UHGV virus genome: UHGV-0283685
Length of the DNA stretch: 10,034 nt
Direction: 5' to 3' (one strand)
Source: a virus
A program made the position numbers and the translations under genes. The notes below the pieces were generated by a model. It was given only the letters and a program-made list of their open reading frames with translations. It made no database searches and was not told where the DNA came from. Shown here piece after piece: positions 1 to 8,615 of this stretch (the stretch's first letter is position 1; every line of letters starts with the position of its first letter).

Positions 1-144
1 GCGATATTCTGCCTGGGTGTGTTCACGCGCAATGAAGAACGTACAACCGGCTATCGCACCGTAAGCCCAGTTTCCGGTAGAAAGGCCAACCAGTATCTGC
101 GCAATAACCGCGCATACTGCATGTGTTATTGGTGTTGTATCCAT
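1..144 (-). CDS. Hypothetical membrane protein, N-terminal 48 codons only (runs off the window)
   Basis: ATG at 142-144 (minus) preceded by AAGGAT about 6 nt upstream, 36 nt downstream of the tailspike stop. Translation MDTTPITHAVCAVIAQILVGLSTGNWAYGAIAGCTFFIAREHTQAEYR is open to the window edge and strongly hydrophobic (likely a TM helix). No family recognised. Confidence 0.4.
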   Translation of the reverse strand, partial: MDTTPITHAVCAVIAQILVGLSTGNWAYGAIAGCTFFIAREHTQAEYR

Positions 145-180
145 ATTTTTATCCTTTTTTAATTTAGCAAATTGATACAA

Positions 181-2832
181 TTACACTCCTGATACTTCAA
201 TAGATAGTTGAATCTTATTTGGCATCTTGTTGCTTAAATATATGGTTGCAAAGTCAAACGAAATATTTAAGTTATTTTCATCACCATCATTATCTGAAAG
301 AACTCCGGTTTTCAATACAACATTTTGCTTATTAATTTCTTTTAAAGGAGAAAAATCAATTGCCTCACCACGATGAATAAGAACACCAACTGCAACTACC
401 CCATGAATATCAAGTATGTCGTGCATATCAAGGCGAACACATGGGACGTATCCACCAACAAGGATACTTGTAGATTTGTTGGCTTCAAGTGTTATTAGAT
501 ATTTTCCGTCTGGTTGAACTATTGTTCCTGCTATTCCATCTGGCGTGTTGAACATACCGCAGTATCTGTATCCTGCTCCAACAGGAACAATTCTGTTACC
601 GCCAAGATCATGGAAATTTCGAACAATTATTGCACCAGGAACTGATGAATAAACCATTACTGCCTCTGTTTGCCCTGATACAGAGTCTGATGTTTCTGGG
701 TTCGCCATGCATAAATTACCACCAAAATAAATATTTTGGATTAGAGGGGTGAGGCCATCATTAACCTCAAAACGTAAAAAGCCCTTGAGAACAGTCCTTG
801 CGGTATTATTCTTAATAACAACAGGAAGTTCTTTATAGTAAGAGTTTCTGTCTGTCTGTGCCAGAGTTGTTTCAATAAAAACAAAAGGTCTGTGATTACG
901 TTGAGTTGCATTCACAGGTTTGTACCTCAAGTTGTATGGCAAAGACATCTCAGTAAAACCATCAATATAATTACAGTTCTGAATCGTGAACCCACCACCA
1001 CTATATCTTACAAAAAAAGGAGCCGGTCCGCTAAATCCCCTGGCGTTCATTCCATCATACACTTCATTTAATCCGCGTATTACACCAGCATAATACAAAT
1101 TGACTGAATTGCCGCCTGTAAAAGTTGTTTCGTATGATGGGCCGTGTCCACCGCAACATGAATTTCTTGTATCGCCATCAGGGAAAAATTTAACTCCATC
1201 ATATGCAGTTCCACCACCCATCATCGTTGGATTTATAATGTTATTATACAGTGATACCATTTGAGTCCCGCTTACATCAAGCCCCCTCCTGCAAGCAAAT
1301 GCTATCATATCCACGACTGTGCAATAGCTGCTATTGTATATTTCAACACCATAACCAGTGCCGTTTGTTAAATCATATGCACGGTTTGAGTATTCAATAT
1401 ATGGCTCTATTATTTTCGTTCTGTAGCATGACTCAAGAAAAATTCCAGTTTCTGAAAAGCCGATTAGTTTTATTCCTTCTATATGCATATCAACAGCGCC
1501 ATCTATCACAAGACCACGGAACCCCAAATCACCAGGAGATGCGTTCTGCGTGACAGGTCTTTCAAAATTGAAATCACCGACAATTCTGCCGTAGCATGGT
1601 TTTCTTTTATATATATTTGCCTTTCTTGTGATTTTAAACACGTCTCCAACAGATGGTTTAAACGGGAATGGTCCCTGAGCATATTCAAATTTTGCTGTTT
1701 TAGTGTCGTAATCCCAATGAGTTATGTATCTTGATATTCCGGCGTTAGCTCCGGTGACACCTGTTACTTTTACCTGATTGTATTGTTTTGTTAATGTTGC
1801 ATCATTACCAAATGAGAATTCACCTCCGGATACAGATGCTGTTACGGTCGTTGAGTAATCATTGCTCGCAGAGTAGAAAAAATAAAATGCACCTGATATC
1901 TCCGCTTTTTTTGTTGCATTATCAAAAGCAGTAACAACATGCATTTCACCTTCACAAGCCTGTCCTCTATTATCTGTCTGAATTAAGCGATTGCCATGAA
2001 TCATAATTATATCGCCTGCATCAACAGAATATGCTGAGTTAATTGATATTGATGTGTCACCAGGATTTATTGTTGAATTATAGTCAATTGGCGTGGCATC
2101 TCCACCTTCGAGTCTTATGAAATAATCATCAATCCAGTTTGGACCAAGAGGCTCTTTTGCGGTTGACTTTAAGACAACCTTGCCATCAGCTACCCAGTCA
2201 TAGTTATAATTATCCCCGCCGCATTTTATGCGGCTAATCAAATACACACCAGAATCCCACTTCAGGCGTTTTCTGTTAGATGCGCAGTAAATGATGGCAT
2301 TTGTTATTGCGTATGTATCGTCAGTAATGCCATCCCCTTTTGCACCAAAATCGCGAACATTTACATGGTCATCAAGTTTATCCTGTAGCGTCCTTTGTGT
2401 TGCTCCGTCTACTTCTTCTGGAAGACCGTACTTATAATTTATAATTGATGGAGTTGAACCATTGTTAAACTTATTCTCTAGTTCTTGTTTAAACTGATCA
2501 GGATCATATTTCAGAATGTTTGGAAAATAGAACTGCTGCGCCCCATAAGCATCGTAAACAGCCATAGAATGGCCTTGCACGGTTACGAATTTGGCAATCT
2601 GTCCGTTATATACCGGATATCCAGCAGCGTTAATGATGATTGGTTGCGAAACAGGAACGTGAGAACCGTCTTCGTTCTCCACATAAACCTGAATCTGGTT
2701 TTCAGGATTTACCGGGTCAGTGTCAATTTTTCCGATATAAATTTTGCCATTGGCTACGGCTTTAAAAGAACGAGCCATAGTGAAGAGTTGCGAAGGCATC
2801 GATACGATCACATTGGCTGTAATGTCTGTCAT
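181..2832 (-). CDS. Tailspike protein: P22 gp9-like N-terminal head-binding domain fused to a long, different receptor-binding region (883 aa)
   Basis: N-terminus [11 protein letters not shown]...[37 protein letters not shown]...[15 protein letters not shown]...LKYDPDQ closely matches the recalled P22 tailspike N-terminal domain; the remaining ~770 aa does not resemble P22 gp9. ATG at 2830-2832 with GGAG 8 nt upstream; stop TAA at 181-183. Confidence 0.9.
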
Positions 2833-2964
2833 TTAATTTGCTCCAGATACAAGGAATCACCGAAGCATGGCTACGGTTGATGTTTGTTGCATACCGAAAT
2901 GGTACGATTGTTGATTTGTACAGTAGGTTTTACGATGCCATTCCACCCATTTGGTGAGGCATTG

Positions 2965-3222
2965 ATGATGTACAGCAAATACGATGAGGCGCAGTTCCAC
3001 TTGAGGCTTACGCACGAGTTGCACGCTAAGATTAAGCAGCGTGCAAAAATGAATAACAGGTCTATCAATTCCGAAATTGTGGCTACGATGGAAGAATCAC
3101 TCTCCAAACCATCACCTGTAAGCGGGTATCGTGATGAAGAAGAGAGGTTGGCCTCATTAATCTCGGAGCGAGTAAAAGAAGTTGCGGCTGATATCCTTAG
3201 AAAAGAAAAAACCCGCGATTAA
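2965..3222 (+). CDS. mnt: Mnt-like ribbon-helix-helix repressor, second paralog (85 aa)
   Basis: FHLRLTHELHAKIKQRAKMNNRSINSEIVATMEESLSKPSPVSGYRDEEERLA aligns along most of its length with recalled P22 Mnt (…NGRSMNSELLQIVQDALSKPSPVTGYRNDAERLA…). Start moved from the track's TTG at 2884 to ATG 2965, which has GGTGAGG 5 nt upstream and gives an N-terminus of Mnt-like length. Stop TAA 3220-3222. Confidence 0.75.
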   Translation: MMYSKYDEAQFHLRLTHELHAKIKQRAKMNNRSINSEIVATMEESLSKPSPVSGYRDEEERLASLISERVKEVAADILRKEKTRD

Positions 3223-3230
3223 GCGGGTTT
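3211..3230. terminator. Bidirectional intrinsic terminator between convergent genes
   Basis: GC stem CCCGC (3212-3216) / GCGGG (3223-3227) with loop GATTAA, flanked by AAAAGAAAAA upstream and TTT downstream. The U-tract is stronger for minus-strand transcripts. Sits between the Mnt-like stop (3222) and the 73-aa ORF stop (3237). Confidence 0.6.
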
Positions 3231-3236
3231 AGTTGG

Positions 3237-3458
3237 TTAGTTATCAAAAAGTCCGTACGTTTCTTCTTCTTCAGGTGTAAGGGGAAGAATCTCTACTCTA
3301 TCTATAGATATCTTTTCAATGTACCCATGAGGTCTACTTAAAATTAAAGCTCTCTCATGCCACAGAACTCCAAGAATGTGATACCTTCCAGCATCGCCTT
3401 TTACCCTGGCTCTTCCTTTGATTCTTGGCGGCATAATGCCATATTTTTTCTTTGCCAT
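3237..3458 (-). CDS. Hypothetical basic protein (73 aa), translationally coupled to the upstream gene
   Basis: ATG at 3456-3458 overlaps the upstream stop as TAATG. N-terminus is Lys/Arg-rich (MAKKKYGIMPPRIKGRARVKG). No own SD within normal spacing. No family recognised. Confidence 0.5.
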   Translation of the reverse strand: MAKKKYGIMPPRIKGRARVKGDAGRYHILGVLWHERALILSRPHGYIEKISIDRVEILPLTPEEEETYGLFDN

Positions 3459-4186
3459 TATGCAACATTACTCCCATGAATCAGGTGTTGTAGTGCTTTA
3501 ACACCTTCCTCATTGTAGCGGAATGCTTCCACCTGTTTGCTGGAATGCGCAGATTTATCCAGGAAGAACTTCCCGTACTGCTCAGTTTTGAGGTTGTTTG
3601 CGTTAGCAATGCGACCAATCTTGTTGGCCGTTACTCCAAGCTGCTCTGCAACCTCCCCTGCTGAGTAGTAATGCTCTTCTATTGCTGGAAGAGGTATTGC
3701 ATTAAAACCAACGATCGGGTTGATTATGCTTGCTGCCGCAGTCTGCTTTGCTTCCGGCGCAAGATTTGGCATCAAATCGAACAGATTGGTAACAGCTTCA
3801 ACCGTCATTTTCAATGTTCGCGCCTGGCGATACTCAACAAGTCCACTAGACGATTTACCGCTTTTAATGTGCGCTTCTTGCATACTTTCAAGTTGGTCTA
3901 CAAGTGAGCGGCGAACAGCTTTAGATTCACGAGCAGCCACTCGAAGGGCTTGCTTAATTGACATAACAACTTTTTCAGAAGTTGTCTTGTTTGATTTTTG
4001 AACTACGAAAATTTCGTAGTGCTCACCTTCAAGTTCATCCTTAATGCGTGCAATAAAGTCGTTATTGCGGACTTCTTTTTCCCCGCACTGTCTACGAGCA
4101 TGATTGACCATCTCTAACAGGTACTGGCTATCAATGGTTTTATCCGTGACAACGGATCCGATGTTTGCTACATTCTTAAAAGTCAT
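3458..4186 (-). CDS. Phage antirepressor/regulatory-like protein with C-terminal KilA-C/ORF6C-type HTH-like segment (243 aa)
   Basis: C-terminal YSAGEVAEQLGVTANKIGRIANANNLKTEQYGKFFLDKS...GVKAL has the look of the DNA-binding C-terminal domain of phage antirepressors. Start set at ATG 4184-4186 (AAGGAA 6 nt upstream) rather than the track's GTG at 4237, which lies inside a terminator hairpin. Confidence 0.65.
   Translation of the reverse strand: MTFKNVANIGSVVTDKTIDSQYLLEMVNHARRQCGEKEVRNNDFIARIKDELEGEHYEIFVVQKSNKTTSEKVVMSIKQALRVAARESKAVRRSLVDQLESMQEAHIKSGKSSSGLVEYRQARTLKMTVEAVTNLFDLMPNLAPEAKQTAAASIINPIVGFNAIPLPAIEEHYYSAGEVAEQLGVTANKIGRIANANNLKTEQYGKFFLDKSAHSSKQVEAFRYNEEGVKALQHLIHGSNVA
4146..4174 (+). 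promoter_or_regulatory. Candidate antisense promoter (sar-like copy 2)
   Basis: -35 GTGACA (4146-4151), 17-bp spacer, extended -10 TGcTACATT (4166-4174), located just inside the start of the minus-strand gene at 4186. The motif TTTGCTACATT nearly matches TTTGCTACAAT at 4885-4895. Confidence 0.35.
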
Positions 4187-4255
4187 TAGGCATTCCTTAT
4201 GTGGTAGTAAGGGTGTGACATAGGCCGCCAGCAGCACACTGGCGGTTTTCTTTTT
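4181..4255 (+). ncRNA. Candidate sar-like antisense RNA 2 (about 75 nt), complementary to the RBS and start codon of the antirepressor-like gene at 3458-4186
   Basis: Predicted start about 7 nt after the -10. Ends at a strong plus-strand intrinsic terminator: stem 4224-4231 / 4239-4245 (7 bp), loop CAGCACA, then TTTTCTTTTT (4246-4255). On the minus strand the same hairpin lacks a U-tract. Confidence 0.35.
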
Positions 4256-4274
4256 GCGCCGTCCGGCGCACCAA

Positions 4275-4901
4275 TCAATGAATCCATTCCTCGCCGCGCA
4301 GTTTTGCCAGCATTGGCTGAGCGTTCTTTACGACAAAATTGTTGGTATCAAGATTCTTCATTTCACGAAGAAGTGATTTCTTGGTTTCTTCTGACATGTA
4401 GCGAGTCTCATATGCAATATCGTAAATCCTTCCTGAAAGCTCAGAACCAATTTGCTTCATTCCTGGGTAGATGTGTTTGCACATTTGTTGACTCTTCTCC
4501 ATCCACAATTGTAAGTAGCAGAGATTAACCAGTTCTTCGTCAGTAAACTGTTTTGCAATCGGTGAGCATTCTGCCTGCCGATCCAAAATATCCAGCACCC
4601 AGCGGCGGAACTCTTTGGCTACCTGAGTGCGAGCAAACATCGCGATTAGGTGGGCACCGCGTAGTGAGAAAACACGCACTTTTTTACGATAATTTCCTGA
4701 GGTACTCACTTCGAGTACCTGAGTCATTCCGGCGCTAAACTCATCGCTATACTTGTTATAAATCATTGTTACTGCACGACTATTTGCGTATTTAAGTGCA
4801 GATGCAATATTAGATGATGTAAACCAAACACCATGCATATCACGGGTGGGCACCAATTCAACTCCGTGGAAGTTGTAATCTGATTTTGCTACAATATTCA
4901 T
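4275..4901 (-). CDS. ant: Antirepressor with Bro-N domain (Ant-like, 208 aa)
   Basis: YNFHGVELVPTRDMHGVWFTSSNIASALKYANSRA...LIAMFARTQVAKEFRRWVLDIL fits the Bro-N fold pattern. It sits directly downstream of arc, as ant does in P22. Start set at ATG 4899-4901 (AAGGAA 6 nt upstream) rather than the track's 4985, which overlaps arc. Confidence 0.75.
   Translation of the reverse strand: MNIVAKSDYNFHGVELVPTRDMHGVWFTSSNIASALKYANSRAVTMIYNKYSDEFSAGMTQVLEVSTSGNYRKKVRVFSLRGAHLIAMFARTQVAKEFRRWVLDILDRQAECSPIAKQFTDEELVNLCYLQLWMEKSQQMCKHIYPGMKQIGSELSGRIYDIAYETRYMSEETKKSLLREMKNLDTNNFVVKNAQPMLAKLRGEEWIH
4887..4895 (+). promoter_or_regulatory. Candidate Psar-like antisense promoter (extended -10)
   Basis: TGcTACAAT (4887-4895) on the plus strand, immediately next to the ant start codon (4899-4901). 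No convincing -35. Confidence 0.35.
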
Positions 4902-4976
4902 GTTAGTTTCCTTGCATACGGTTACTGACATAGAGGCCCGGTTTGTGTTCACGCACTGCCGGGCTTCACTATTTTT
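4902..4976 (+). ncRNA. sar: Candidate Sar-like antisense RNA (about 75 nt), complementary to the ant RBS and the arc-ant intercistronic region
   Basis: Position and orientation match what is known for P22 sar (a small antisense RNA of about 68-69 nt from the arc-ant intercistronic region). Plus-strand hairpin GGCCCGG (4935-4941) / CCGGGC (4959-4964) followed by TTCACTATTTTT (4965-4976). Confidence 0.4.
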
Positions 4977-5148
4977 ACTGGGCATTAGCTCTTTCCTCTC
5001 TCAGGCTTTTAGCCAGTCGCTGCACAATCGCAGAGTTGATAGAAATTCCATCCATTTCAGCAACACGTCTAATCTCCTCCTTCATTCGCGCTGGCAAACG
5101 AAGCTGGAAACTTTGACTTTTACGACCTGTGTAAAGCACATCTTTCAT
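4975..5148 (-). CDS. arc: Arc-like ribbon-helix-helix repressor (57 aa)
   Basis: SFQLRLPARMKEEIRRVAEMDGISINSAIVQRLAKSLREE aligns with recalled P22 Arc (QFNLRWPREVLDLVRKVAEENGRSVNSEIYQRVMESFKKE). Start set at ATG 5146-5148 (GGGAGAA about 6 nt upstream) rather than the track's GTG at 5161-5163. Stop TAA 4975-4977. Confidence 0.8.
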   Translation of the reverse strand: MKDVLYTGRKSQSFQLRLPARMKEEIRRVAEMDGISINSAIVQRLAKSLREERANAQ

Positions 5149-5169: not shown

Positions 5170-5223
5170 ACCAACTTGGTTCTAGAACCAATTTAACACC
5201 ATTTATTTTGATGTCAAGTTGGT
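5170..5223. promoter_or_regulatory. Operator cluster: 16-bp perfect palindrome TTGGTTCTAGAACCAA plus extra TTGGT/ACCAA half-sites
   Basis: Perfect palindrome at 5176-5191. Overlapping palindrome ACCAAcTTGGT at 5170-5180. A further caagTTGGT at 5215-5223 overlaps the -35. All lie between the divergent arc (-) and Mnt-like (+) starts. Confidence 0.55.
5190..5217 (-). promoter_or_regulatory. Candidate Pant-like promoter for arc-ant
   Basis: On the minus strand: perfect -35 TTGACA (plus 5212-5217), 16-bp spacer, -10 TAAATT (plus 5190-5195). Predicted start falls inside the 16-bp palindrome. Confidence 0.5.
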
Positions 5224-5259: not shown

Positions 5260-5580
5260 ATGAGCAAGTTCCCTAGTCATGAAATGGATAGGTTCAATAT
5301 CAGGCTTCCTGCAGGAATGCGGGATGCTATAGCTGAACGAGCCAAACGTAACGGCAGATCAATGAACTCAGAGATTGTTCAGATACTGGAAGATGCCTTG
5401 AATGCAGAAAATACACTCGGGGAAATAGCAGATAAAATCAACAGCGTCTCGGTTCCGCTAAATGTTGATGCGCTAGTTCAACTTCAAGCCCAGGTTATCG
5501 CCATGCAAAAAGAAATACAGGAAAAGTTCAGAGAGCAGAACGAAAAGTTGAGAGAACTGCTAAACAAAAAAACCACCTGA
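5260..5580 (+). CDS. mnt: Mnt-like ribbon-helix-helix repressor with C-terminal coiled-coil, divergent from arc (106 aa)
   Basis: RFNIRLPAGMRDAIAERAKRNGRSMNSEIVQILEDAL closely matches the recalled P22 Mnt RHH region (RAEANGRSMNSELLQIVQDAL), and the C-terminus ends KKTT as Mnt does. The C-terminal half is heptad-like (LVQLQAQVIAMQKEIQEKFREQNEKLRELL). ATG 5260 with GAGG 4 nt upstream. Occupies the mnt position opposite arc. Confidence 0.8.
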   Translation: MSKFPSHEMDRFNIRLPAGMRDAIAERAKRNGRSMNSEIVQILEDALNAENTLGEIADKINSVSVPLNVDALVQLQAQVIAMQKEIQEKFREQNEKLRELLNKKTT

Positions 5581-6495: not shown

Positions 6496-8615
6496 CTGTC
6501 ACTAGCGAGCCATGTAATAATCCCCGTGCGGGCAATGGTTTTTGCTTCATCTGTTGATAAGGTTTTCTCCCATCTCTTAAATGCCCCAGATTGCATCAGT
6601 TTCCTTTCTATTGCGCGTCTCACTTCTGCTCTGTCTACTGGTGCGTTTTGCAGGCGAAATAGCATTGATTTAAACTCAGGAGAAGATAGCAGAGCATCAG
6701 CAGCCTTTATCCTGCTTGTTTTCCCTGACATCAATGCAGACGTTATCACCCCTGTTGCACCTACACCAGGGAGACCAGATAAGCTTGTAATACCTTCCGC
6801 CGCAGCAGCTTTTGAGGCTATTCCATAAATTTTTGCGAGACTACCCTTTTCTTTCAGAAAGTTATTAACTTGCTGATCCACAAGACTACTAGCATACTGC
6901 TTACCAGTATTGAGTCTATTCATAGCCTTAGCTGCTTGATAAATCGTATCAAGGCGCTTTGATGCATCTGTGCCAATAGCATCACGGAGAGCCTTCATAT
7001 TGGCCCCATTGCGTGACATTCCGTTATACCATTTTACAAATCCATCAACTCCTAATTGCTGACCAGGTGATTTGGCATAGCTGGTAAATGCTTTATTCAT
7101 TGAGGTGAGCGCAACTTCCTGCCGCATATCCTTTGGAATCGACTTCATTAATTGCCTAAAGTCGCCACCGTTTCCTTTTGCCATATTAACAACAGCACTT
7201 TCAACTTTTGGAATTGCTGATTGCTGAAGTTTTCTACCCAAGACGGTTACAGCATCATCTTCAATGGATTTTCGTTTTTTTACCAACTCCTTACCAAGCG
7301 TCCATAATTCCCCTGCGCCATATTTTTCTGCGACAGCCTGTTGGTCATCTGTTATGGCTGCATATAACTTTTTAAGAACACCTGTTTCTTCATCCTTGAA
7401 TGGACCAGAGCCTTTGCCAATAGCTTGTCCAACCTGCTTTCTAGCGAGATCTAAACGCCCATACGTTGGCAAGGTGTTTGGATCAAGTCGGTTCAATGTC
7501 CGCTTCATTATTGGAGATAATTCATCAATTCCACCTATGTCATCAGCAAAATCCTCTAAAAAATTCAATGTATTAGTTGCCTCAATCCGGTCTCTTACAG
7601 GAACCTTTTCGGCAATTTTGTTGTAGATGTTATCTGACTGATTTTGTAATGATGAAATGGTTTTATCAAAATTATCTGCAAGCCTGTCAGAAACCAGTTG
7701 CTTATCAAGGCTTCCCCCAAATGAAGTTATCATTTCATCAGCTTTTCTTCCTAATTCAGTAATAAAACGCTTATGCGCCTCACTAATCTCTGTTCCAGGG
7801 AGACTTGCCACTGCATTATCAAGAGCCCTGACAGCAGGATTATTAGAGATCATGCCTGGAGTGGCATAATTTTCCAGTTCTAGCTCACGAATAGCATTTA
7901 TCGCGTTAAAATCAGGATTAACTTCATCGGCGAAATCTTGAATAGCTCGTTGCCCGCCGATAAATTTATTGTCCATTGCGCCAGCAGCTTTCTTTAACGT
8001 TGCTTTAGATGATTTACTACCCATCCCTACGGATGAGCGATAAATATCTCCGGCACTATTTTTAATTTTTCCTGCAATCTTCCCAAGCGCTGGACCAACA
8101 ATCTCGGCTACAGGGCCAGCCACAGCGCCAATAGCAGCGCCGGAAGCAACATCGCTATTTGTTCCATTGGCTACAATAGCCCCTTCTCCAGCACCAAGCC
8201 CTGCGGCGGCAGCCAGCCTTGCCGCCCCTTTCGGAACCTGAGAAATAATCCCACCACCACTAACAAATGGCGCTGCTTGTCCAACGAACTCACCAACATC
8301 TTGTGCGGTTGATGGTTTTGCCGCTAACTTCTGCTGTAGAGACTGAATTGCGGCTTGCTCTTCTGGTGTCATGTCCTGAAACAGGCCAACACCTTTACCA
8401 ACATCCATCAATCCACTGAGAACGCCATACATAAAACGGTCGAAGCCGTTAGCATTATTAACAACATTTTCCTGTCTGGAATTTTCCTCTAGTGAAACCA
8501 AAGGAGATTGCTGCTGTTCTGGTTGTGCATCAAGCACAAAGCCATCAGGAAGCTGTGAGTTATCAGGCTGATTATCGAGAACAAATCCTTCGGGTAAACC
8601 TACATCGGTTGCCAT
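6492..8615 (-). CDS. DNA-ejection (injection) protein, P22 gp16-like (707 aa)
   Basis: Last of three consecutive late-operon genes just before the immI-like region, in the same order as P22 genes 7-20-16. ATG 8613-8615 with AGGAA 6 nt upstream, overlapping the upstream gene's stop by 16 nt. Gly/Ala-rich segments and an N-terminal tandem repeat. Assignment rests on synteny and size, not a verified alignment. Confidence 0.7.

Follow-up and report, generated by a model that had tools for sequence, protein, structure and literature searches.

How does a prophage keep two antirepressor genes silent when both lie in a region that late transcription reads through? The question is raised by a DNA stretch of 10,034 nucleotides (nt) from virus genome UHGV-0283685, called here the window and always meant at its full length, which represents the "ant moron" or immI region of a P22-like Escherichia coli prophage. 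In P22-like phages this region sits between gene 16 and the tailspike gene, and late transcription reads through it toward the latter (PMC2629481). Antirepressors decide whether a prophage stays silent and their leakage is costly, so keeping several of them off is a real regulatory question. Two such genes, ant1 and ant2, follow one another on the minus strand of the window, and the ribosome-binding site (RBS) of each is covered by what appears to be a short plus-strand unit made of a promoter and a terminator, module 1 at ant1 and module 2 at ant2. Module 1 resembles the sar antisense RNA of P22, while module 2 would be an addition to the circuit. We put the probability that module 2 encodes a functional antisense RNA at roughly 75%.

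Module 2 and its target gene are laid out as follows.

3458-4186, minus strand: ant2, the second antirepressor-like gene (242 amino acids), with a P1-Ant-like N-domain and a Roi-like C-domain
4146-4174, plus strand: Psar2, a predicted promoter within ant2 codons 5-14, with the -35 GTGACA at 4146-4151, a 17-bp spacer, then TGc and the -10 TACATT at 4169-4174
4181-4255, plus strand: RNA2, a predicted RNA of ~70-75 nt starting at A4181 (+1), with a 5' hairpin, a terminator hairpin at 4222-4248 and a T-run to 4255

The proximal part of Psar2 reads TTTGCTACATT (4164-4174, plus strand). A promoter scan found Psar2 independently, with 9 of 12 matches and an upstream TG, and its -35 agrees with the consensus at five of six positions, as against three of six for the promoter of module 1. 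Just downstream, CAT at 4184-4186 marks the start of ant2, and TTCCTT at 4193-4198 is the complement of its Shine-Dalgarno (SD) sequence. The predicted start of RNA2 lies 6 nt inside ant2, and the transcript would contain both CAU (4184-4186) and UUCCUU (4193-4198), overlapping the SD sequence and the start codon of its target. The hairpin at 4222-4248 is followed by TTTTCTTTTT, to 4255; at the same place the terminator scan reports 10 pairs, then TCTTTTTGCG. When folded, RNA2 (4181-4255) forms two hairpins with a free energy of -25.1 kcal/mol (z-score -2.8).

The evidence that carries the argument is comparative. Starts of ant2 homologs were taken from 75 IMG/VR loci, from Erwinia phage Midgardsormr38 and from Proteus, Dryocola and Intestinirhabdus genomes, giving 37 distinct sequences. 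GTGACA, the 17-bp spacing, TGn and TAnAnT are invariant in all 37, the -10 taking the forms TACATT, TAAATT, TAAAGT and TACAGT, while the bases of the spacer differ, as do the residues encoded. When 59 unique genes are aligned by codon, all five third-codon positions that fall within the -35, the TG and the -10 (codons 5, 6, 7, 12 and 13) are invariant, compared with only 7 of 226 (3%) beyond codon 16. The third positions in between (codons 3, 4, 8-11, 14 and 15) vary, and the predicted +1, A4181, which falls on the third base of codon 2, is also invariant. By our own arithmetic from these counts, the hypergeometric p for such synonymous invariance is ~1.5e-7. At the level of the alignment this shows module 2 to be under nucleotide-level purifying selection exactly at the predicted -35, TG, -10 and +1.

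Could the promoter hexamers nevertheless be a by-product of constraint on the N-terminal peptide (M-T-x-x-N-V-A-N-x-G-S-V-V-T), with no dedicated small RNA behind them? The ant2 leader peptide is indeed fairly well conserved, and the promoter pattern taken alone is not above chance. However, the conservation lies at synonymous third positions, and it survives replacements of N by T, V by L and A by T that keep TAnAnT and TG. Module 2 is likewise retained in a fusion of the leader to a Rha domain, the latter beginning only at residue 16; in Proteus and Providencia, genes whose N-terminal codons are unrelated keep a promoter at the same distance, and roi homologs with the same protein domains outside the ant-moron setting have neither leader nor module. 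Such a by-product is thus very improbable, and a promoter kept for its own sake remains the preferred account of the hexamers.

The terminator is conserved in its own way. Its 9-bp stem shows compensatory changes at three of nine pairs (G-C to A-U; C-G to A-U or G-U), the seven inner pairs are never broken, and non-pairing cells occur only in the outermost pair (one gap, one U-U); the T-run is found in all variants. Module 2 therefore combines a promoter of its own, conserved past coding constraint, with a covarying intrinsic terminator. Hairpin and T-run might instead act as a terminator or insulator for longer antisense transcripts arriving from the left, for example from the ribbon-helix-helix (RHH) gene at 2968-3222, or else as a hairpin for mRNA stability or processing. 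Some plus-strand read-through is conceivable, since the terminator behind the RHH gene has only a poor T tail on that strand, but module 2 persists where the RHH gene and orf73, the gene that follows ant2, are absent or different, and we give either role little credence. As for the predicted antisense RNA itself, per-sequence folds recover the two hairpins in most diverged lineages, the 5' hairpin being closed by nucleotides beside the anti-start codon. Of 5426 complete E. coli genomes, 77 have module 2, among them those of the commensal HS and of enteroaggregative E. coli (EAEC) 55989, and the unit is also found in elements of Erwinia, Proteus, Providencia, Dryocola and Intestinirhabdus; in none of these is it annotated, and it is conserved with covariation across at least six genera.

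A side feature of the Psar2 spacer is the perfect palindrome CGGATCCG at 4153-4160, which holds a Dam site (GATC). This GATC is seen in many, not all, variants because Gly-Ser codons encode it.

Upstream of ant2 in the transcript, the start of ant1 carries the following elements.

4275-4901, minus strand: ant1, antirepressor (208 amino acids), with Pfam domains Bro-N and P22_AR_C and a match to PHROG 245 'anti-repressor Ant' (E 7e-53)
4887-4895, plus strand: Psar1, a predicted extended -10 promoter (TGcTACAAT) in ant1 codons 3-5, with a weak -35 TGGAAG at 4867-4872
4902-4976, plus strand: RNA1, a predicted RNA of ~69-75 nt, with a 5' stem and then a terminator hairpin at 4933-4967

Here TTTGCTACAAT (4885-4895, plus strand) includes the -10 TACAAT of Psar1 at 4890-4895, with TG ahead. 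G4902 lies seven nt downstream, straight after the CAT (4899-4901) of the ant1 start codon, which is the start given by RefSeq as well, and TTCCTT at 4908-4913 is the complement of the ant1 SD sequence AAGGAA, 6 nt from the ATG. In the predicted RNA1 a 5' stem, GUUAGU/ACUGAC, encloses the anti-SD UUCCUU. The second, GC-rich hairpin is followed by the tail CUUCACUAUUUUU, which extends into the stop codon of arc; read to the end of the T-run at 4976, the tail CACUAUUUUU overlaps that codon (4975-4977). RNA1 (4902-4976) folds into two hairpins at -33.3 kcal/mol (z-score -6.4), with a stem-loop I of the form ((((((..((........))..)))))), and for comparison P22 sar also gives two hairpins, at -29.5 kcal/mol (z-score -5.3).

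Is module 1 then the sar of this prophage? In the P22 record Psar lies in the first ant codons, the first base of sar is the one just ahead of the ant ATG, and the sar terminator reaches into the 3' end of arc. P22 Psar reads GTGTTA-17-TGcTATACT with its +1 seven nt after the -10, and Psar1 is in the same register. The arms of stem I are GUUAGU/ACUGAC in RNA1 and GUUGGU/ACUGAC in P22, the 6-bp stem being kept through a G-U to A-U change, and the motif TTGCTAyAmTATTCATGTTrGT...TTACTGAC is common to module 1 and P22 sar. The -10 of Psar1 is kept across diverse first-ant genes. With the Rfam sar model (RF00262; gathering threshold, 43 bits), P22 sar as a positive control scores 97.8 bits and related loci score 44.6-87.3 bits; the first-ant genes of these loci form a graded series toward P22 sar, in which the Ant1-type locus L082, at 44.6 bits, is above the threshold. 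Module 1 shares with sar the arc-ant intercistronic position, the two-hairpin shape and sequence homology. Because the register, the motifs and stem I are the same and graded intermediates such as L082 exist, module 1 is, as judged by position and sequence, an ortholog of P22 Psar/sar and a diverged member of the sar lineage. The P22 RNA itself is reportedly the subject of studies by Liao et al. in 1987, Wu et al. in 1987 and Schaefer and McClure in 1997.

A weak cmscan match was also noticed between RNA1 (4899-4970) and the SymR antitoxin RNA (Rfam RF01809; 21.2 bits, E 2.5, gathering score 61). SymR resembles the predicted RNA1 as a cis-antisense RNA lying over the RBS and start codon of the gene it targets, but membership was rejected, the match being far below the gathering score and a chance-level likeness of shape.

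Several observations speak against reading the two modules as sar-like antisense units. The -10 of Psar2 (TACATT, or TAAAGT in some relatives) has only four of six consensus positions. In the minimum free energy fold of RNA2 the anti-SD is partly paired in stem I, whereas in sar it is in the loop. No Rfam family matches RNA2, even at permissive E-values, and module 1 has no Rfam sar match at E<=10 in the window scan and stays below the gathering threshold of that model. For the 5' hairpin of RNA2, MAFFT and RNAalifold, working on a ragged alignment, recover the terminator only; this hairpin rests on recurrent per-sequence folds and on one lineage with an apparent compensating change. Many of the 59 genes in the codon alignment are closely related, although the remainder of the same genes provides an internal control. 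Finally, loosely defined promoter-terminator pairs, 50-110 nt apart, number 2 in the window; dinucleotide shuffles have 0.54 on average, and at least one turns up in 38% of them. The promoter-terminator pattern alone is not significant. Such pairs are not rare enough, and the argument therefore rests on the comparative data.

The promoter and terminator scan has blind spots, in that it missed both the module 1 promoter, which has a poor -35, and the module 1 terminator, whose T-run lies 4 nt from the stem; on a reading of its sequence, the P22 sar terminator would fail the same scan, likewise by its T-run distance. The second loose pair, at ~7839-7867 on the minus strand, is in the sense direction inside a gp16-like gene, and is probably due to chance at the rate seen in the shuffles.

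With such background rates, might two unrelated gene starts simply happen to carry TGnTACAxT downstream of hairpins? Besides the frequency of loose pairs in shuffles, this would fit the finding that promoter-like sites are not enriched in the region (4, with 6.5 expected). Against it, the 11-mer TTTGCTACAWT occurs twice in the window with 0.02 occurrences expected, both units are placed exactly over an RBS, module 1 is orthologous to an experimentally characterised RNA, and module 2 is conserved with covariation in at least six genera. Chance resemblance is effectively refuted by the comparative data, and the non-randomness of the modules comes from their exact placement over two ribosome-binding sites and from their conservation.

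An earlier note on this DNA, made from the letters alone, had described two copies of one sar-like module, one at each antirepressor gene start. Its module coordinates are all right when checked against the sequence, and the idea that each gene start carries a sar-like cis-antisense unit, with both RNAs as predictions, is supported by the anatomy, the folding, the orthology of module 1 and the selection and covariation in module 2. Folding, which the note had proposed as a check, gave two hairpins for both RNAs as for P22 sar; conservation of the second module, for which it had proposed a comparison of P22-like genomes, appears as the promoter kept in 37 of 37 variants, and the -35 of Psar2 that it called good has held up in the scan and in those same variants. 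As regards two copies of one module, the shared architecture stands and a recent duplication does not. The modules do align, with 74 identities in 125 columns (z-score 4.5), mostly in the promoter and start part, and RNA1 and RNA2 share UGACAUAG and the anti-SD. However, a covariance model, R1, built from 21 module-2 variants matched only 4181-4256 in the window (87.5 bits). R1 finds neither module 1 nor P22 sar, and the Rfam sar model finds neither module of the window. The recent-duplicate reading was dropped on account of the R1 result; distant common ancestry is possible, as is convergence under the same constraints.

What does module 2 control? Ant2 has no Pfam or NCBIfam match, and matches PHROG 1726 'anti-repressor' (E 9e-101). 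In tblastn comparisons it is 61-64% identical to Roi of Shiga toxin (Stx) phages over almost its full length, and its residues 14-106 are 59-63% identical to Ant1/Ant2 of P1/P7 (E 4e-25 to 1e-29). It is thus homologous to an experimentally defined antirepressor, and repressor binding by Ant2 is predicted. The family, which includes Roi of HK022 and Stx phages, is modular, as noticed at window 3458-4186, L085 2501-3205 and L086 2177-2932: a conserved Roi-like C-terminal half is joined to a P1-Ant-like N-domain in the window, to Phage_pRha in Intestinirhabdus or to Bro-N in Providencia and Proteus. All three N-domains are typical of antirepressor-type proteins.

Module 2 appears to move with the start of these genes. 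Among 80 IMG/VR loci, ant2 is nearly always behind another ant gene, of Ant1 type or of P22 type, and identity between module-2 loci ends straight after the T-run; the sequences beyond it fall into at least six different contexts, which include both of these ant types and others. One locus, L024, has a canonical Rfam sar at a P22-type ant and module 2 at ant2; L070 and L008 have three units each: besides module 2 there is one of Ant1 type, and a second mnt-arc-ant set holds a canonical sar. In Intestinirhabdus, module 2 and a 15-codon leader stand ahead of a protein whose Rha domain starts at residue 16. Ahead of a Bro-N protein in Providencia and Proteus, the covariance model detects a homologous RNA body (E 2e-7 to 7e-5), and the unrelated first codons contain a promoter of their own, TTGACT-18-TACTAT, at the equivalent distance. 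Stx-phage roi genes and IMG/VR loci of the same type served as a negative control; their N-terminus is different, the terminator upstream points in the sense direction, and an antisense module is lacking.

It is tempting, at somewhat less than even odds, to see the antisense unit as a portable cassette composed of the terminator, the RBS and a leader of ~15 codons that mainly encodes the antisense promoter. We hold with the same reserve that this block recombines onto different N-domains (P1-Ant-like, Rha and Bro-N), and that phages stack two or three antirepressors silenced in this way. If this were so, genes entering the ant moron with its late read-through would arrive with their own translational silencer, and part of a protein N-terminus would be shaped by a promoter on the opposite strand and not by protein function.

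The roi genes outside this setting deserve a word of their own. An IMG/VR group (L071/72/74/75), taken together with the Stx phages, had been considered as divergent modules, and proved to carry roi genes preceded by a terminator in the sense direction. In Stx phages roi is preceded by the conserved sense-direction terminator AATCCTCGCAyTsGCGGGGATTTCTTTTAT (L094 ~1115-1145; L095 ~1140-1170). One protein family, Ant2/Roi, thus has a terminator ahead of it in the nin-type context, and in the ant-moron context a predicted antisense RNA.

How would the two modules act? By homology with P22, Pant would transcribe arc-ant1-ant2-orf73 up to a terminator at 3230-3209. A sigma-70 extended -10 promoter appears to be written into the first codons of each target gene, on the opposite strand. 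Psar1 and Psar2 would thus fire against ant1 and ant2, starting at G4902 (RNA1, at the start codon) and at A4181 (RNA2, just inside the gene); antisense transcription would cross the SD sequence and stop ~70-75 nt on, where an intrinsic terminator lies in the intergenic space upstream of the gene. Complementarity to the translation-initiation region of the cognate cistron would be perfect for both RNAs, in RNA2 extending over the start codon, and pairing would block ribosome binding and possibly trigger cleavage, cistron by cistron. The production of RNA1 and RNA2, the position of their ends and the repression of translation by them are what we infer from these features. For P22 sar, such a block on ribosome binding has been established (1987 work by Liao et al. 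and by Wu et al., cited in PMC2629481 and PMC12111858). In addition, arc and ant are also transcribed from Plate, and sar inhibits translation of the Plate transcripts, where the paper writes "arc translation", not ant (PMC12111858). Since transcription of the late operon passes through the region, Arc or Mnt acting on Pant cannot silence the ant genes. Most likely, each RNA would independently silence its own cistron, late read-through transcripts included. If each ant cistron needs its own post-transcriptional silencer, it becomes understandable that antisense unit and gene start move together.

RNA2 might also be made and have a main task other than silencing in cis: it could act in trans on ant2 mRNA of superinfecting relatives, interfere with transcription from Pant or with late transcription, or target host mRNAs. 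The antisense RNA STnc6030 of the P22-like prophage BTP1 confers superinfection exclusion (PMC7067206). The -35 of Psar2, being better than that of Psar1, could keep the promoter active while Pant is silent, and the stretch and anti-SD shared by RNA1 and RNA2 make cross-talk possible. On the other hand, a diffusible RNA complementary to an RBS would act both in cis and in trans, two modes that the present data do not separate, and the transcribed overlap of only ~75 bp limits interference of the collision type. We regard a main role outside cis-silencing as unlikely, and retain the silencing of ant2 by its own antisense RNA as the reading to be set beside known systems.

The closest of these is P22 sar, which is like the predicted RNAs of both modules in being a cis-antisense RNA of ~69 nt, with a promoter in the first antirepressor codons, complementarity to the SD sequence and a second hairpin that is the terminator. 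Unlike sar, module 2 is found at the junction of ant1 (stop codon, 4275) and ant2 (start, 4186) and not at that of arc and ant, which places it outside sar proper; its target is of a different protein family (Roi/P1-Ant-like). Module 2 also has a near-consensus -35, a canonical U-rich terminator and a start inside the open reading frame (ORF) that covers the AUG: sar starts just outside ant, RNA2 6 nt inside ant2. Another comparison comes from P1 and P7, in whose immI the c4 antisense RNA controls icd-ant. Like the predicted RNA2, c4 is a small RNA that masks an RBS and keeps silent, post-transcriptionally, an antirepressor homologous to the N-domain of Ant2. It differs in being processed from a sense transcript upstream of its target, in its short and non-contiguous pairing, and in having no convergent promoter inside the gene. 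OOP (of lambda and P22, directed against cII/c1), P22 sas and STnc6030 are like the modules in being short or long transcripts that converge on a regulatory or structural phage gene and have their own promoter and intrinsic terminator (PMC13397905, PMC7067206), but OOP lies over the 3' end of its target, STnc6030, an exclusion factor, is ~786 nt long, and none of them lies at an antirepressor RBS.

The earlier note had taken the second unit to be outside the described immI circuit, and this agrees with the literature searched, where sar is described only as the single immI antisense RNA. Our literature search found no second sar-type RNA, no antisense control of Roi-like genes and no differential RNA sequencing (dRNA-seq) of such prophages, and the RefSeq record of 55989 has no annotation at either module. 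Module 2 would be a new RNA family of a well-known mechanistic kind, useful and tidy, if not surprising to the specialist. Should RNA2 be real, it would be a candidate for a new Rfam family, and the P22 immI circuit (Mnt, Arc and sar) would have a common extended form with a private antisense RNA for each antirepressor cistron. It would also be a clear case of a coding sequence whose synonymous sites maintain a promoter, and would show regulatory RNAs travelling with gene cassettes in mosaic phage genomes.

The minus-strand order around the modules is Pant-arc-ant1-ant2-orf73, and the remaining features of the window are these.

181-2832, minus strand: tailspike gene
2968-3222, plus strand: orphan Mnt-like RHH gene, a RefSeq coding sequence (CDS)
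3209-3230, minus strand: intrinsic terminator ending arc-ant1-ant2-orf73, with 8 pairs and TTTTCTTTTCT in the terminator scan
3237-3458, minus strand: orf73, last gene of the operon, PHROG 4977, function unknown
4975-5148, minus strand: arc-like repressor gene (57 amino acids), Pfam Arc domain (E 8e-12), a RefSeq CDS
5190-5217, minus strand: Pant-like promoter, TTGACA-16-TAAATT with TG, 10 of 12 matches in the promoter scan
5260-5580, plus strand: mnt-like RHH repressor gene, divergent from Pant, Pfam Arc domain (E 1.6e-20), in RefSeq an Arc family DNA-binding protein
right of mnt, minus strand: ejection-protein genes

The position of the Pant-like promoter matches that of P22 Pant, between mnt and arc, and by analogy it would drive arc-ant1-ant2-orf73. 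At the far end of the operon, the ATG of orf73 overlaps the ant2 stop codon as TAATG (3456-3460), which suggests translational coupling of orf73 to ant2; through this coupling RNA2 might control orf73 indirectly. A plus-strand terminator-like hairpin with a T-run (TGGCGGCATAATGCCA TATTTTTT) is found at 3426-3449, within the first orf73 codons. It was considered as a third sar-like unit and rejected, as an RNA ending there stops short of the orf73 RBS; it could be a stop for plus-strand read-through from the RHH gene, or chance.

The RHH gene itself (2968-3222, within the interval 2833-3222 beside the tailspike start) encodes a protein 47% identical to P22 Mnt. Its counterpart in L070 (3468-5142) and L008 (4052-5724) is the mnt of a complete second mnt-arc-sar-ant set, located between orf73 and the tailspike gene. 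The gene in the window looks like an orphan mnt left after the loss of arc and ant, and its divergent promoter region would now face the tailspike gene.

From ~2680 to at least 8650 the window is identical, base for base, to E. coli 55989. The distal part of the tailspike gene (window 1-2680) is unrelated to that strain, with an identity of 25-28%, that is, random, and the window has an ORF of 883 amino acids where 55989 has a CDS of 660. This difference corresponds to a mosaic swap of the receptor-binding part, just past the head-binding domain.

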